A DNA stretch of 64,000 bases. Source: Escherichia coli. GTDB lineage: Bacteria > Pseudomonadota > Gammaproteobacteria > Enterobacterales > Enterobacteriaceae. Both the position numbers and the translations under genes were made by a program. The DNA lies in assembly GCF_003018255.1 (NCBI RefSeq), contig NZ_CP027440.1; one strand, 5' to 3'. Shown here piece after piece: positions 28,050 to 64,000 of this stretch. Numbering within the stretch: the first letter of the stretch is position 1; every line of letters starts with the position of its first letter. The notes beneath the pieces are model-generated. The model made no database searches and was not told the DNA's origin. It worked only from the letters and a program-made list of their open reading frames with translations.

Positions 28050-28062
28050 TCATTGTCGATAT

Positions 28063-28139
28063 GTAGGCCGGATAAGGCGTTCACGCCGCATCCGGCAACC
28101 GATGCCTGATGCGACGCGGTCGCGTCTTATCAGGCCTAC
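28063..28139. repeat. REP element downstream of pgi
   Basis: gtaggccggataaggcgttcacgccgcatccggcaa...gcctgatgcgacgc...gcgtcttatcaggcctac. Confidence 0.9.
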
Positions 28140-28206
28140 AGGTCGATGCCGATATGTACATCGTATTCGGCAATTAATACATAGTACGATTGATTAAATA
28201 GCCTTA

Positions 28207-28240
28207 AAAACAATGCCGACTATAAGTCGGCATTGTTTTA
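28207..28240 (+). terminator. Intrinsic terminator after pgi
   Basis: Near-perfect palindrome aacaatgccgact-ata-agtcggcattgtt followed by ttta. Confidence 0.8.
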
Positions 28241-28546
28241 TCAGATAAATCCTCTTGTCTGTCATTTAACGAAAATCATACCGTGAGGTTAATCCTAAAA
28301 TAGATTTTTAATCGTGATTGATTTCGGAAAATACGCAGAGTAATTACTTTTTATTTTATTTTAACTTCATGATTTTTAATCTTATTTATATATAAGTCAA
28401 AGCTTATATTTGATATTCATTCCAATTGTCCTAAAACTCCATCACTAATTCCCTGCGCCGTAATTCGCATGCTTTAGTTGTGTATACTCGATCCCGCCCG
28501 AAATGTTTTGGGTAAATCTCCATTCATTCAATGAAGGGAAATTGTT

Positions 28547-28789
28547 ATGAAAAAAGTTCTGTATGGCATTTTTGCCATATCTGCGCTTGCGGCGACTTCT
28601 GCGTGGGCTGCACCTGTACAGGTGGGCGAAGCGGCAGGATCGGCAGCAACGTCGGTTTCGGCGGGTAGTTCCTCCGCGACCAGCGTCAGCACCGTAAGCT
28701 CGGCGGTGGGTGTCGCGCTCGCGGCAACCGGTGGCGGTGATGGTTCTAATACCGGGACCACCACAACCACGACCACCAGTACCCAGTAA
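28547..28789 (+). CDS. yjbE: Small secreted Ser/Thr/Gly-rich protein YjbE
   Basis: 80-aa ORF with signal peptide [21 protein letters not shown] and a low-complexity body ending in a poly-Thr run; first gene of yjbEFGH. Confidence 0.85.
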
Positions 28790-28903
28790 TAAAGTATGTA
28801 TCCCCAAAATAATTCGAGTCATCGCATCTGAAGCTTGAAGTATGAAGGGGATTAACCATAACCACACTCCGGTGTGGTTATTCTGCCCCTCTGGAGAAGA
28901 GTC

Positions 28904-29542
28904 GTGAAGCGACCTGCACTCATTCTTATCTGCCTGCTATTACAGGCCTGTTCAGCCACGACTAAAGAGCTGGGCAATTCACTATGGGACAGTCTGTTCG
29001 GTACGCCAGGCGTACAGCTGACGGACGATGATATTCAAAATATGCCCTACGCCAGCCAGTACATGCAGCTTAATGGCGGGCCGCAGTTATTTGTGGTGCT
29101 GGCCTTCGCTGAAGACGGACAACAAAAATGGGTCACTCAGGATCAGGCCACCCTTGTCACACAACATGGTCGTCTGGTGAAGACTTTGCTTGGCGGCGAC
29201 AACCTGATTGAAGTGAATAACCTTGCCGCCGACCCGCTGATTAAACCCGCACAAATCATTGATGGTGCAACCTGGACGCGCACGATGGGCTGGACCGAGT
29301 ACCAGCAGGTACGCTACGCCACCGCGCGCTCAGTCTTCAAATGGAATGGCACCGATACCGTCAAAGTCGGCAGCGATGAAACCCCGGTTCGCGTGCTGGA
29401 CGAAGAAGTCTTCACTGACCAGGCGCGCTGGCATAACCGCTATTGGATCGACAGCGAAGGGCAAATTCGCCAGTCGGAACAGTATCTCGGCGCGGATTAC
29501 TTCCCGGTGAAAACCACCCTCATCAAGGCGGCAAAACAATGA
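28904..29542 (+). CDS. yjbF: Lipoprotein YjbF
   Basis: ORF-track 28874..29542; start moved to the GTG giving (M)KRPALILICLLLQACSATTKE, a lipoprotein signal with lipobox LLQAC (212 aa). Confidence 0.8.
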   Translation: MKRPALILICLLLQACSATTKELGNSLWDSLFGTPGVQLTDDDIQNMPYASQYMQLNGGPQLFVVLAFAEDGQQKWVTQDQATLVTQHGRLVKTLLGGDNLIEVNNLAADPLIKPAQIIDGATWTRTMGWTEYQQVRYATARSVFKWNGTDTVKVGSDETPVRVLDEEVFTDQARWHNRYWIDSEGQIRQSEQYLGADYFPVKTTLIKAAKQ

Positions 29543-30276
29543 TTAAACAAACTATTGTCGCGTTGCTTTTGAGTGCGGGGGCGTCATCAGTCTTCGCGGC
29601 GGGAACCGTCAAGGTGTTCAGCAATGGCAGCAGTGAGGCCAAAACGCTGACGGGCGCAGAGCATTTAATCGATCTGGTAGGCCAACCGCGGCTGGCAAAC
29701 AGCTGGTGGCCCGGAGCGGTGATTAGCGAAGAGCTGGCCACGGCGGCTGCATTGCGTCAGCAGCAGGCGTTGCTGACACGGCTGGCAGAACTGGCTGCAG
29801 ATTCCAGCGCTGACGATGCCGCTGCGATTAACGCCTTACGCCAGCAAATTCAGGCGTTGAAGGTGACGGGCAGGCAAAAAATCAATCTTGATCCTGATAT
29901 CGTCCGCGTTGCCGAACGCGGTAACCCGCCGTTGCAGGGCAACTACACGCTGTGGGTCGGAACGCCGCCGTCCACGGTCACGTTGTTCGGGCTTATCAGT
30001 CGTCCTGGCAAGCAGTCATTCACTCCAGGTCGCGACGTGGCGAGCTATCTCTCTGACCAGAGCCTGCTCAGCGGTGCGGATCGCAGCTACGCGTGGGTGG
30101 TTTACCCGGACGGACGCACGCAAAAAGCGCCGGTGGCTTATTGGAACAAGCGTCACGTAGAGCCGATGCCCGGCAGCATTATTTATGTTGGCCTCGCGGA
30201 CTCCGTCTGGAGTGAGACACCTGATGCCCTTAACGCCGACATTCTTCAGACTCTGACGCAGCGGATACCCCAATAA
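29539..30276 (+). CDS. yjbG: Periplasmic protein YjbG
   Basis: ORF-track 29443..30276; start moved to [22 protein letters not shown] (signal peptide, 245 aa); ATGA overlap with the yjbF stop. Confidence 0.82.
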
Positions 30277-32372
30277 TGAAAAAAAGACATCTGCTTAGCT
30301 TACTGGCGCTGGGCATTAGCACAGCTTGCTACGGCGAAACATATCCTGCGCCCATTGGTCCGTCGCAATCGGATTTCGGTGGCGTAGGATTATTACAAAC
30401 GCCCACCGCGCGCATGGCGCGGGAAGGGGAGCTGAGCCTGAACTATCGCGATAACGATCAGTACCGTTATTACTCAGCTTCAGTGCAACTCTTCCCGTGG
30501 CTGGAAACAACGCTGCGCTATACCGATGTGCGCACCCGGCAGTACAGCAGCGTCGAAGCGTTCTCTGGTGATCAAACGTATAAAGATAAAGCCTTCGATC
30601 TCAAACTGCGTTTGTGGGAAGAGAGTTACTGGCTGCCGCAAGTGGCGGTTGGTGCGCGGGATATCGGCGGTACGGGGCTGTTCGATGCGGAATATCTTGT
30701 CGCCAGCAAAGCCTGGGGGCCATTCGATTTTACGCTCGGCCTGGGCTGGGGATATCTGGGCACCAGCGGTAATGTGAAAAATCCGCTCTGTTCGGCCAGT
30801 GACAAATATTGCTATCGCGATAACAGCTACAAACAAGCGGGATCTATCGACGGCAGCCAGATGTTCCACGGTCCGGCCTCACTGTTTGGCGGCGTGGAAT
30901 ACCAGACGCCCTGGCAACCGCTGCGCCTGAAACTGGAGTATGAAGGCAATAATTATCAGCAGGATTTTGCCGGTAAGCTGGAGCAAAAAAGTAAGTTTAA
31001 CGTCGGGGCGATTTATCGCGTTACCGATTGGGCCGACGTTAACCTTAGCTATGAACGTGGCAACACTTTTATGTTTGGCGTCACGCTGCGCACCAACTTT
31101 AACGATCTGCGCCCGTCCTACAACGATAACGCCCGCCCGCAATATCAACCGCAACCACAGGATGCCATTTTGCAGCATTCGGTGGTGGCGAATCAGTTAA
31201 CGCTGTTGAAATACAACGCCGGACTGGCCGATCCGCAGATCCAGACGAAAGGCGATACGCTGTATGTCACCGGCGAGCAGGTGAAATATCGTGATTCGCG
31301 TGAAGGGATCATCCGTGCTAATCGGATCGTGATGAACGATCTGCCGGATGGGATCAAAACGATCCGCATTACGGAAAATCGCCTTAACATGCCGCAGGTG
31401 ACGACGGAAACCGATGTCGCCAGCCTGAAAAATCATCTCGGCGGAGAGCCGTTGGGCCACGAAACGACGCTGGCGCAAAAACGCGTCGAGCCAGTGGTTC
31501 CGCAGTCCACCGAGCAGGGCTGGTATATCGACAAATCACGCTTTGATTTCCATATCGATCCGGTGCTGAACCAGTCGGTCGGTGGCCCGGAAAACTTTTA
31601 CATGTATCAGCTGGGCGTGATGGGAACGGCGGATTTGTGGCTGACGGACCATCTGCTGACCACCGGCAGCCTGTTTGCTAACCTTGCCAACAACTACGAC
31701 AAGTTTAACTACACTAATCCACCGCAGGACTCGCACTTACCGCGCGTTCGTACCCATGTGCGCGAGTATGTGCAGAACGATGTCTATGTGAATAACCTGC
31801 AAGCCAACTACTTCCAGCATCTGGGCAACGGCTTCTACGGTCAGGTCTACGGAGGTTATCTCGAAACCATGTTTGGCGGTGCGGGGGCAGAAGTGTTGTA
31901 TCGCCCGCTGGACAGCAACTGGGCGTTTGGTGTGGATGCCAACTACGTTAAACAGCGCGACTGGCGTAGTGCAAAAGATATGATGAAATTCACCGACTAC
32001 AGCGTGAAAACCGGACATCTGACCGCCTACTGGACGCCATCTTTCGCTCAGGATGTGTTAGTGAAAGCGAGCGTCGGGCAGTATCTGGCTGGGGATAAAG
32101 GCGGCACGCTGGAGATCGCCAAACGCTTTGATAGCGGCGTGGTAGTGGGGGGCTATGCCACGATCACGAATGTTTCGAAAGAGGAGTACGGCGAAGGGGA
32201 CTTCACCAAAGGCGTGTATGTCTCTGTACCGCTGGATCTCTTCTCGTCTGGTCCGACACGCAGCCGTGCGGCAATTGGCTGGACGCCGCTGACGCGTGAC
32301 GGTGGTCAGCAACTTGGGCGTAAGTTCCAGTTGTATGACATGACCAGCGACCGTAGCGTCAATTTCCGCTAA
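30276..32372 (+). CDS. yjbH: Outer-membrane lipoprotein YjbH
   Basis: 698-aa ORF with signal peptide and lipobox (LGISTAC); last gene of yjbEFGH; start overlaps the yjbG stop (TAATG). Confidence 0.88.
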
Positions 32373-32380
32373 GTCATGGG

Positions 32381-32416
32381 AAAGGTGCCAGTTTTCGCAC
32401 TCACTGGCACCTTTAT
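32381..32416 (+). terminator. Intrinsic terminator after yjbH
   Basis: Hairpin aaaggtgccag...ctggcaccttt followed by attctt. Confidence 0.7.
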
Positions 32417-32418
32417 TC

Positions 32419-32667
32419 TTAATGGCCTGTCGAGCCATCAGGAACGCAGTTCACCCCCGGTTTGCGATCTGGTGTGTAAAGGCGAAAACATTCTGTCTTC
32501 CTGTCCGTCGATATCGGTTGCAGGTCTGGTTGCCTGAGCGACTGGGCCATCATTGGGCTGGAGACATTGCTTTGCGGTAGGTCGGCTTTATCAGCAGTAC
32601 CGAGCGGACCAGCATAAGCAGGAAGAACAGAGACTGATAACATCAAAGCAGCAAAATAAGGCTTCAT
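32419..32667 (-). CDS. yjbT: Small periplasmic protein YjbT
   Basis: ORF-track 32419..32697 (92 aa); start preferred at MKPYFAALMLSVSVLPAYA (signal peptide; GGTGG upstream). The longer start cannot be excluded. Confidence 0.6.
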   Translation of the reverse strand: MKPYFAALMLSVSVLPAYAGPLGTADKADLPQSNVSSPMMAQSLRQPDLQPISTDRKTECFRLYTPDRKPGVNCVPDGSTGH

Positions 32668-32911
32668 TTTTACCACCTTTATCAGGTTACGTTTCATTTG
32701 TTCCAGAGGAACATTGTCGATTTTTCGCGCATTGCTGGTGGCTGGGAATCACCTGAATGGGTGATTTTTTTGGGCTGTGTGTTTTGCCAGATGCGACGTT
32801 GATGGGAGATGCCCACTTAATTGAGCTGAACAAAACATACACAAAAAATATAGATCTCCGTCACATTTTTGCGTTATACAGGAAGCTCGCCACTGTGAAG
32901 GAGGTACTGCT

Positions 32912-62439: not shown

Positions 62440-62867
62440 CAAACAATTCCTCGGAAAAGAGCTGATGCCCTGGACAGCGCGGCGTTGTTCACGGGAGGCG
62501 TGATACACTCTGGCTATCGCGGGGCTTGCAGAACACAAAAATGAAACACTCTGTTTGTTTCATGAATTTTGTGAACTATATCACAATTGGTTGTTTGTTA
62601 GCCAGATTAGGCCGTGACTTTTATTGCCGTACAGATTATGTGTTTTTTCAGCGGCATTAAGGGTATATCTTCCCGCCGCCTCTGCATTCCTGAAGGTGAT
62701 TAATTTTTAAGATCAATGAATTATCGTCATCCTGGTGACGATTAAAAAGGTCTCAATTTTATATCAGGCAAAAGTGCTATTTATACCGTAAGATTTATCT
62801 AAAGACGTCGGTAGCCAGGGTTTCACCTTGCAATAACCGGGTATAAACAGGCAGGGAATTGATAGCA

Positions 62868-64000
62868 ATGAGTCATCGTGCACGACACCAATTACTGGCG
62901 TTTCCGGGCATTATCTTTTTAGTTCTCTTTCCCATCATTCTGTCGCTATGGATTGCCTTCTTTTGGGCAAAATCAGAAGTGAATAATCAGCTCCGAACCT
63001 TTGCTCAGCTGGCGTTGGATAAATCTGAGCTGGTCATTCGTCAGGCAGATTTAGTGAGCGATGCAGCTGAACGCTATCAGGGGCAAGTTTGCACTCCAGC
63101 CCATCAAAAGCGAATGTTGAATATTATTCGTGGCTATCTTTATATTAATGAATTGATTTATGCTCGTGATAACCATTTTTTATGCTCATCGCTGATAGCG
63201 TCTGTAAATGGCTATACGATTGCACCGGCCGATTATAAGCGTGAACCTAACGTTTCTATCTATTATTACCGTGATACGCCTTTTTTCTCTGGCTATAAAA
63301 TGACCTACATGCAGCGGGGAAATTATGTGGCGGTTATCAACCCTCTCTTCTGGAGTGAAGTGATGTCTGATGATCCGACATTGCAATGGGGAGTGTATGA
63401 TACGGTGACGAAAACCTTTTTCTCGTTAAGCAACGAGGCCTCGGCAGCAACGTTTTCTCCGCTGATTCATTTGAATGATTTAACCGTACAACGAAATGGC
63501 TATTTATATGCGACAGTTTATTCGACAAAACGCCCAATTGCAGCCATTGTTGCGACTTCATATCAACGTCTTATAACTCATTTTTATAATCATCTTATTT
63601 TTGCGTTGCCCGCCGGTATTTTGGGGAGTCTTGTTCTGCTATTACTCTGGCTACGTATTCGACAAAACTATTTGTCTCCCAAACGCAAATTGCAACGCGC
63701 CCTCGAAAAACATCAACTTTGCCTTTATTACCAGCCAATAATCGATATCAAAACAGAAAAATGTATCGGAGCTGAAGCATTGTTACGTTGGCCTGGTGAG
63801 CAGGGGCAAGTAATGAATCCGGCAGAGTTTATTCCGCTGGCAGAAAAGGAGGGGATGATCGAACAGATAACTGATTATGTTATTGATAATGTCTTCCGCG
63901 ATCTGGGCGTGTACCTGGCAACACATGTCGATCGCTATGTTTCTATTAACCTGTCGGCCTCCGATTTTCATACGTCACGGTTGATAGCGCGAACCAACCA
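62868..64000 (+). CDS. pdeC: c-di-GMP phosphodiesterase PdeC (YjcC), N-terminal part; continues beyond the window
   Basis: Open frame from ATG 62868 to the window end, not in the ORF track because no stop is reached. Starts [32 protein letters not shown] (TM helix), then a periplasmic sensor region, a second TM helix, and the start of an EAL domain ([20 protein letters not shown]). Confidence 0.88.

Follow-up and report, generated by a model that had tools for sequence, protein, structure and literature searches.

The closest described relative of the locus studied here is the yjbEFGH operon of Escherichia coli K-12 (b4026-b4029), whose co-transcription and exopolysaccharide role are credited to Ferrieres 2007 in the papers that cite it. 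The operon is activated by RcsA-RcsB (PMC5461412, PMC5651002), and yjbE was its most strongly induced gene in a mucoid mutant (PMC12057083). Its paralogue gfcABCD is part of the group 4 capsule operon gfcABCDE-etp-etk and belongs to a family with a threonine (Thr)-rich first gene and overlaps of 1-4 nt among the last three genes (PMC8592465). We analyzed the corresponding locus in a 64,000-nucleotide stretch of E. coli DNA (contig NZ_CP027440.1; hereafter the window) and consider it highly probable that it is the known Rcs-regulated yjbEFGH operon, paralogous to gfcABCD, in ordinary E. coli chromosome, that the AT-rich DNA upstream of yjbE is regulatory and that a run of seven Thr residues in YjbE is under selection. 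The operon, its Rcs control and its gene overlaps are already published, and the sections below therefore concentrate on the upstream DNA, on the Thr tract and on the spacer that follows yjbE.

The operon and its closest relatives

The genes are arranged as follows:

up to 28049: pgi, the upstream neighbor of yjbE
28547-28789, plus strand: yjbE, encoding a secreted Ser/Thr/Ala/Gly-rich protein of 80 amino acids with a signal peptide at about residues 1-21 (Pfam PF11106, 113.6 bits, E = 5e-33)
28904-29542, plus strand: yjbF, with a GTG start, encoding a GfcB-family lipoprotein (PF11102, 211.8 bits)
29539-30276, plus strand: yjbG, encoding a GfcC-family periplasmic protein (PF20616, 166.9 bits; PF06251, 142.6 bits)
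30276-32372, plus strand: yjbH, encoding a GfcD-family outer-membrane lipoprotein, a beta-barrel (PF06082, 899.3 bits)

The naming of these genes as yjbEFGH in the preliminary description of this DNA is borne out by the four Pfam families and by the K-12 and RefSeq annotations: RefSeq labels the same locus alike in near-identical genomes, and the K-12 record has the same layout. The Pfam scores of the four proteins, and that of YjbT from the neighboring gene, all lie far over the cut-off; a search with NCBIfam models returned zero matches. The position downstream of pgi is that of the yjb paralogue and not of gfc; pgi and yjbE are syntenic in at least 65 of 78 species. The region 28050-28910 finds a match in 5,425 of 5,426 complete E. 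coli genomes, with 99.4-99.5% identity to strains such as R8 and SF-468, and with 95.5% identity to K-12 MG1655 over the 861 bp as a whole.

The order E-F-G-H on a single strand and the short overlaps of the last three genes are as expected for the family. The start/stop overlaps that had been claimed between yjbF, yjbG and yjbH are present, as ATGA at 29539-29542 for yjbF/yjbG and as a single base in TAATG at 30274-30278 for yjbG/yjbH, while yjbE and yjbF do not overlap and are separated by a spacer of 114 nt. Such overlaps have already been described for gfc and yjb operons (PMC8592465) and would couple the translation of yjbF, yjbG and yjbH.

Compared with K-12, the window has the same four genes in the same order and place downstream of pgi, the same overlaps and an identical YjbE protein; the core promoter and 5' untranslated region (UTR) proposed below are also identical, except for one T in a T-run. 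The difference lies in the distal AT-rich upstream DNA, where 11.0% of positions differ (28201-28454), against 3.6% in yjbF and 1.2% in yjbE. The gfcABCD operon follows the same plan, with a small Thr-rich first protein, secreted or membrane-bound, followed by GfcB/YjbF, GfcC/YjbG and the GfcD/YjbH barrel, and it too has a spacer, of about 100 nt, after its first gene. Unlike the gfc operon, yjbEFGH is not followed by wza/wzb/wzc-type genes (gfcE-etp-etk). The C-terminus of GfcA (...GDGGSHNTSTTTSTTR) resembles that of YjbE, but its terminal Thr run has 3 residues instead of 7; GfcA has no match to the Pfam YjbE family and BLASTP between the two proteins gives E = 65, so that homology of the first genes is not demonstrable by sequence.

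Probable regulatory DNA upstream of yjbE

A strongly AT-rich region of roughly 300 bp upstream of yjbE had been noticed in the preliminary description, and the composition confirms it: the guanine plus cytosine (GC) content is 0.20-0.35 in 100-nt windows over 28150-28450 and 0.283 between 28201 and 28454, while the window as a whole has 0.519. Across the species in which pgi and yjbE are syntenic (at least 65), the intergenic length is 334-510 nt. When the 350 nt that precede the yjbE ATG were aligned for 31 sequences from about 20 named genera, near-invariant islands stood out within otherwise variable AT-rich DNA. The features of interest are:

28284-28297, plus strand: site 1, TGAGGTTAATCCTA, a complete box of the RcsB/RcsAB type, about 250-263 nt before the ATG
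28322-28335, plus strand: site 2, an inverted half-site TTTCGGA followed by conserved AAATACG, near -225 from the ATG
28429-28435, plus strand: site 3, a promoter-proximal half-site TCCTAAA about 65 nt upstream of the proposed transcription start
28478-28490, plus strand: TTGTGTATACTCG, holding a candidate -10 hexamer TATACT (28483-28488) 58 nt before the ATG
28496-28513 and 28519-28539, plus strand: two hairpins of the proposed 5' UTR, from an RNAalifold consensus of 24 species

The segment TTGTGTATACTCG is identical in 30 of the 31 aligned sequences (the remaining one has TTATG), and 28455-28546 carries no single-nucleotide polymorphism (SNP) among 10 E. coli haplotypes. The -35 region that goes with TATACT is poor, as would be expected of an activator-dependent promoter. 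We infer from this element a transcription start near 28495 and a 5' UTR of about 52 nt. The AT-rich 300 bp are then most likely untranscribed regulatory DNA upstream of the promoter and contain no leader, so that the long leader proposed in the preliminary description is probably wrong: the only deeply invariant promoter-like element points to a short one.

Within the proposed UTR, the first hairpin stays paired through one-sided changes (GC/GU, UG/UA/CG), and the second pairs with the Shine-Dalgarno sequence GAAGGGA but is nearly invariant and thus uninformative for covariation; the fold of the single sequence, with z = -1.3, is not significant alone. A weak-(-35) TATACT promoter at this place would thus give a UTR of about 52 nt with its second hairpin over the ribosome-binding site. 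The almost invariant segment 28519-28539 (TCCATTCATTCAATGAAGGGA) may fold to hide the ribosome-binding site or, equally, bind a small RNA (sRNA) or a protein.

The three upstream blocks are candidate Rcs binding sites, as judged from the conservation of their letters. With the RcsB box consensus TN(G/A)GAN4TC(T/C)NA (PMC7913699) as reference, site 1 fits at 13 of 14 defined or free positions, and it resembles the box of the rcsA promoter, TAAGGTTTATCCGA. In about 70 species, its half-site TC[CT][TG]AAA lies between -238 and -268 relative to the ATG; site 2 lies at about -197 to -228 in 67 of the 70 species with the motif, and site 3 at -116 to -121 in most of about 75 species, at -107/-108 in a Citrobacter group and absent or displaced in three. 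Throughout about 70 species, all the half-site pentamers are TCCTA, TCTGA, TCCGA or TCTTA, and their variable positions change independently. This set is exactly the degeneracy of the RcsB half-site TC(T/C)NA, which argues for reading the blocks as Rcs sites and not as an RNA helix. The candidates are like the RcsAB and RcsB boxes of the rcsA, wza, rprA and flhDC promoters in the sequence of site 1 and in belonging to a documented RcsA-RcsB target operon; they differ from these described boxes in that two of the three are half-sites and in that site 1 lies farther from the proposed start than most.

The literature establishes RcsA-RcsB control of the operon (PMC5461412, PMC5651002), in line with the envelope-stress induction that had been suggested for it. 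RcsA-RcsB bound at the three candidate sites would activate the yjbE promoter under envelope stress, and three specific candidates are now defined for mutagenesis, as is the conserved yjbE-yjbF hairpin described below. A T-to-C change at K-12 position 4,235,682 swept through a population selected with bacteriophage T7, alongside yjbH Y102S (PMC10044975); by alignment, this position corresponds to 28324 in the window, the conserved T of the site 2 half-site TTTCGGA.

Several observations weigh against this interpretation of the upstream DNA. Site 1 departs from the consensus at position 5, which is G and not A, and lies about 200 nt from the proposed start, which is unusually far; sites 2 and 3 are half-sites only. 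The relaxed RcsB 14-mer pattern is not enriched in the window (15 matches, 19.9 expected), so the argument for Rcs sites rests on conservation. Read on the other strand, the conserved blocks also match an Rfam sRNA family, and TTGAT near 28370, likewise conserved, could be part of a second promoter farther upstream; the leader would then be longer. In the searchable literature, we found neither a mapped yjbE transcription start nor a footprint. Scanning the region for the RcsAB consensus TAAGAATATTCCTA with at most 3 mismatches gave no match; site 1 departs from it at 4 positions, each of them weakly specified.

The relaxed RcsB-box pattern also occurs on both strands at 62789-62802 and at 63015-63028, 226 nt apart (TAAGATTTATCTAA, TTGGATAAATCTGA).

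Small RNA, long leader or regulatory DNA

The family matched on the other strand is STnc430, a candidate predicted computationally in the Salmonella pgi/yjbE intergenic region. Two features bear on it:

28202-28351, minus strand: match to Rfam STnc430 (RF02053), 72.8 bits against a gathering score of 47, covering positions 1-162 of the 162 of the model
28211-28239: intrinsic terminator of pgi, with the hairpin CAATGCCGAC-TATAA-GTCGGCATTG at 28211-28235 and a T-run at 28236-28239

In this alternative, the conserved AT-rich blocks are the body of a real sRNA, a minus-strand transcript that would start at about 28351, end at the bidirectional hairpin near 28205 and run divergently from yjbE; this alternative is compatible with a regulatory role of the same DNA, and we judge it unlikely. 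The E. coli match has the same syntenic place and strand as the Salmonella candidate, opposite both flanking genes (the arrangement -> <- -> of Table S3 in Sittka 2008 is that of the window), and is full length. Syntenic matches above the gathering score, at 47-164 bits, occur in 14 of 20 genera sampled. A minus-strand TAAAAT resembling a -10 hexamer (28363-28358) lies 7 nt before the first base of the model and is partly conserved, and in this strain UUUUU comes after the hairpin when the minus strand is read. Relative to the other STnc430 copies, that of E. coli is about 11 nt shorter in its central part and has the lowest score among close relatives.

Other observations argue against it. 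Sittka 2008 (Table S3) gave the Salmonella candidate 0 cDNA reads, with or without Hfq co-immunoprecipitation, and no Northern blot, and no later report of STnc430 expression was found in the searchable literature. Applied to the minus strand of the region, RNAalifold gave no consensus structure. The match is driven by the terminator together with an inverted pair of TC[CT][TG]AAA. A third copy of this motif, in direct orientation and about 118 nt upstream of the ATG, falls beyond the putative RNA. The arms of the main stem vary independently, each within the RcsB half-site alphabet, and of 70 species only 18 have complementary bases at the variable central N-N position. The only STnc430 stem that covaries is that of the terminator, which also serves pgi. 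Kluyvera lacks the U-run on the minus strand, which is weak in Trabulsiella and K-12, and among E. coli strains no part of the locus is richer in SNPs than the body of the candidate. Therefore, the Rfam STnc430 family probably describes conserved promoter-upstream DNA, made of paired RcsB-type half-sites and the pgi terminator, and not an sRNA, a reading that may be of modest use to curators and to researchers working on the Rcs regulon or on gfc/yjb export.

The terminator itself is well supported on the plus strand. The hairpin has a folding energy of -21.5 kcal/mol (z -8.2), covariation between genera supports its stem (GC/AU in 9/7 sequences), and the TTTTTAT downstream is conserved. On the minus strand, the fold is at -22.1 kcal/mol (z -7.8), and in this strain the hairpin reads as a terminator in that direction too.

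Another explanation, which we find about as improbable as the sRNA, is that the AT-rich DNA is a long transcribed leader, an H-NS-silenced promoter region or both, its AT-richness serving the binding of nucleoid proteins. The GC content of 0.20-0.35 over about 300 bp speaks for it. AT-rich tracts of such composition commonly bind H-NS. The TTGAT near 28370 could be a distal -35 element, and the high SNP density is usual in weakly constrained AT-rich spacers. Against it stand the -10-like element 58 nt from the ATG, which is the sole invariant one, and the searchable literature, which holds no H-NS link to yjbE. The intergenic length and the motif islands are moreover conserved across genera, favoring specific sites over generic AT-richness. 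Finally, a promoter and terminator scan of the region returned no plus-strand sigma-70-like promoter; the same scan missed the hairpins after pgi, in the yjbE-yjbF spacer and after yjbH, the first two having too short a T-run and the last a loop of 10 bases. Regulatory DNA with specific sites therefore stays the preferred reading. The leader had also been put forward as a hotspot of variation; the distal AT-rich DNA is indeed SNP-rich, with the 11.0% divergence from K-12 given above, but it is probably not a transcribed leader.

The threonine tract of YjbE

Near its C-terminus, YjbE carries the following tract:

28757-28777, plus strand: seven-Thr tract, accaccacaaccacgaccacc, with the codons ACC, ACC, ACA, ACC, ACG, ACC and ACC

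The seven codons are as the preliminary description quoted them, but YjbE does not end in them: the run is followed by Ser-Thr-Gln and the stop codon. At the DNA level, the tract is an imperfect hexanucleotide repeat, ACCACN x3, with at most 2 identical codons in a row, and lacks the long perfect repetition of a short unit that characterizes a contingency locus.

Its length within E. coli was surveyed with a 102-nt probe over the tract, which matched 5,420 genomes (4,738 at 99% identity or more, 579 at 95-99% and 103 at 90-95%); outliers were fetched and allele-specific queries added. Naming the alleles after their number of consecutive Thr residues, we found:

T7, the standard allele (80 amino acids): about 5,315 genomes
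T9, ACCACA duplicated (+6 nt): 85 genomes
T5, ACGACC lost (-6 nt): 18 genomes
T12, 15 nt duplicated: 1 genome
frameshift allele (-2 nt): 1 genome, a draft-style record annotated as a pseudogene

Non-T7 alleles thus make up 105 of the 5,420 genomes (1.9%). The identity bands of the allele probes leave no room for T6, T8 or T10 among these genomes, although larger insertions may remain hidden in split alignments. In-frame length steps are of 6 or 15 nt and never of 3, which fits slippage on the imperfect ACCACN repeat and not on single codons; replication slippage would now and then add or remove 6 or 15 nt. The T5 allele is found with at least three strongly divergent flanking haplotypes, separated by 6 to 75 differences in 1.46 kb, and T9 with at least three spacer haplotypes (28 genomes equal to the probe, 2 at 98.5% and at least 30 at 97.5% with a 201-nt span), so that either the events recur or the alleles move by recombination. 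A word-indexed protein search with YjbE could not serve for allele lengths: most of its hits were truncated or frameshifted fragments, and the main cluster, of 80 amino acids, was not among them.

The comparison across species was based on a YjbF scan of species-representative genomes, which yielded 80 loci from several dozen named genera with YjbF identities of 63-97%. Exactly seven consecutive Thr residues precede Ser-Thr in YjbE of 73 of the 79 other Enterobacteriaceae species, and the six exceptions, Kluyvera and relatives, have T5-S-T3. Across species, the tract is spelled by 56 different codon strings. Seven Thr residues being kept despite so many spellings, the length is held by strong purifying selection at the protein level. 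From these sequence comparisons, the tract can mutate but is kept under tight constraint, which is the opposite of unchecked hypervariability; selection would hold it at seven Thr, and variants would stay rare. The potential length variability that had been ascribed to yjbE is thus real, with recurrent 5-, 9- and 12-Thr alleles, but limited to about 1.9% of E. coli genomes and set against a nearly constant length in other species. An invariant yjbE length and a short, constitutive leader had been named in advance as observations that would contradict the preliminary description; the leader is probably short, whereas the length of yjbE varies and its expression is not constitutive according to the literature.

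YjbE is predicted to be a small, secreted, disordered Ser/Thr-rich protein: AlphaFold2, run on a 28-sequence alignment, gave a mean predicted local distance difference test score (pLDDT) of 48 and no confident fold. Nevertheless it is better conserved than its neighbor YjbF, mature YjbE being 76-98% identical across genera where YjbF drops to 63-69%, and the constant seven Thr residues mark the tract as functional. Such conservation of yjbE is unusually high for a low-complexity gene. In one possible reading, YjbE produced without its export partners may itself cause envelope stress.

What the tract does can be put forward only as a speculation, to which we give a small chance. The seven-Thr C-terminus (...GDGSNTG-T7-ST-Q/R) may be a functional ruler, either as an acceptor for O-glycosylation or priming, or as a stretch that passes through the YjbH/GfcD double barrel, and the natural 5-, 9- and 12-Thr alleles may tune polysaccharide export or Rcs activation, hence mucoidy and resistance to phages and predators. 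If true, this would provide the first functional handle on the uncharacterized GfcA/YjbE class of proteins.

The reverse proposal, that the Thr-codon run is a contingency locus whose frequent slippage produces distinct YjbE lengths or on/off switching exploited by selection, draws on the four in-frame length alleles and one frameshift, on the recurrence of T5 and T9 on different haplotypes and on the repeated selection of yjb mutations under predator or phage pressure (PMC8540638, PMC10044975), but it can be set aside as very improbable: T7 is found in 98% of genomes, the repeat is imperfect, the changes of -6, +6 and +15 nt are all in frame and the sole frameshift lies in a pseudogene-annotated record, the length is constant in 73 of 79 other species despite saturated synonymous change, and the laboratory-selected mutations are in yjbF, yjbG or yjbH or are insertions of insertion sequence (IS) elements, none of them in the tract.

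A 'yjbE +9 bp' mutation published for mucoid clones (PMC8540638) was considered as a possible expansion of the tract and rejected, since 'IS1 +9 bp' (breseq notation) stands for an IS1 insertion in the parent dataset. The mutation most likely reflects insertion of IS1, which duplicated 9 bp of its target, and it links no tract length to a phenotype.

The yjbE-yjbF spacer and the end of the operon

The spacer and the end of the operon contain three hairpin-forming elements:

28800-28852, plus strand: hairpin-forming insertion of about 50 nt in the yjbE-yjbF spacer, before the conserved hairpin
28858-28881, plus strand: conserved spacer hairpin, ATAACCACAC-TCCG-GTGTGGTTAT, with a loop TNCG across species
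32382-32413: hairpin after yjbH, -20 kcal/mol, z -4.9

The conserved spacer hairpin has a folding energy of -14.8 kcal/mol (z -4.9). All 18 spacers compared, from about a dozen genera, share the same stem core, TAACCACAC/GTGTGGTTA, and in spacers other than those of E. coli TTT(T/C)G comes after the hairpin. It is probably a partial terminator or a stabilizer that sets the ratio of yjbE to yjbFGH. As a partial terminator it would lower read-through into yjbFGH, which agrees with the report that induction within the operon was strongest for yjbE (PMC12057083). A stem that is invariant at the nucleotide level is unusual and suggests a function beyond a purely structural one.

The insertion of about 50 nt was seen only in E. 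coli and in E. whittamii, the one other Escherichia sampled. With it, the spacer reaches its 114 nt, while 62 of 80 spacers (79 species and the window) measure 60-65 nt. It is absent from E. coli EC1639, and 15 E. coli genomes have less than 80% coverage of a query spanning it. Its only Rfam match is a partial, sub-threshold one to isrH (25.6 bits, gathering score 45).

The hairpin after yjbH is probably the terminator of the operon, held in common with the convergent yjbT.

Neighboring features

Two further features flank the operon and its upstream DNA:

28066-28136, plus strand: repetitive extragenic palindrome (REP)/bacterial interspersed mosaic element (BIME) pair directly 3' of the pgi stop codon (Rfam naRNA4, RF02564, 79.5 bits, gathering score 59.5)
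32419-32697, minus strand: yjbT, convergent to yjbH (Pfam PF17089)

The AT-rich region had been placed after the pgi terminator; in fact the REP/BIME pair is what follows pgi, and the terminator sits inside the AT-rich stretch. The pair is strain-variable in E. coli, many genomes aligning only from query base 138/145 on. Single strains carry an IS element between pgi and the AT-rich region, namely IS1 in AVS0528 and IS200C in CFSAN061770.

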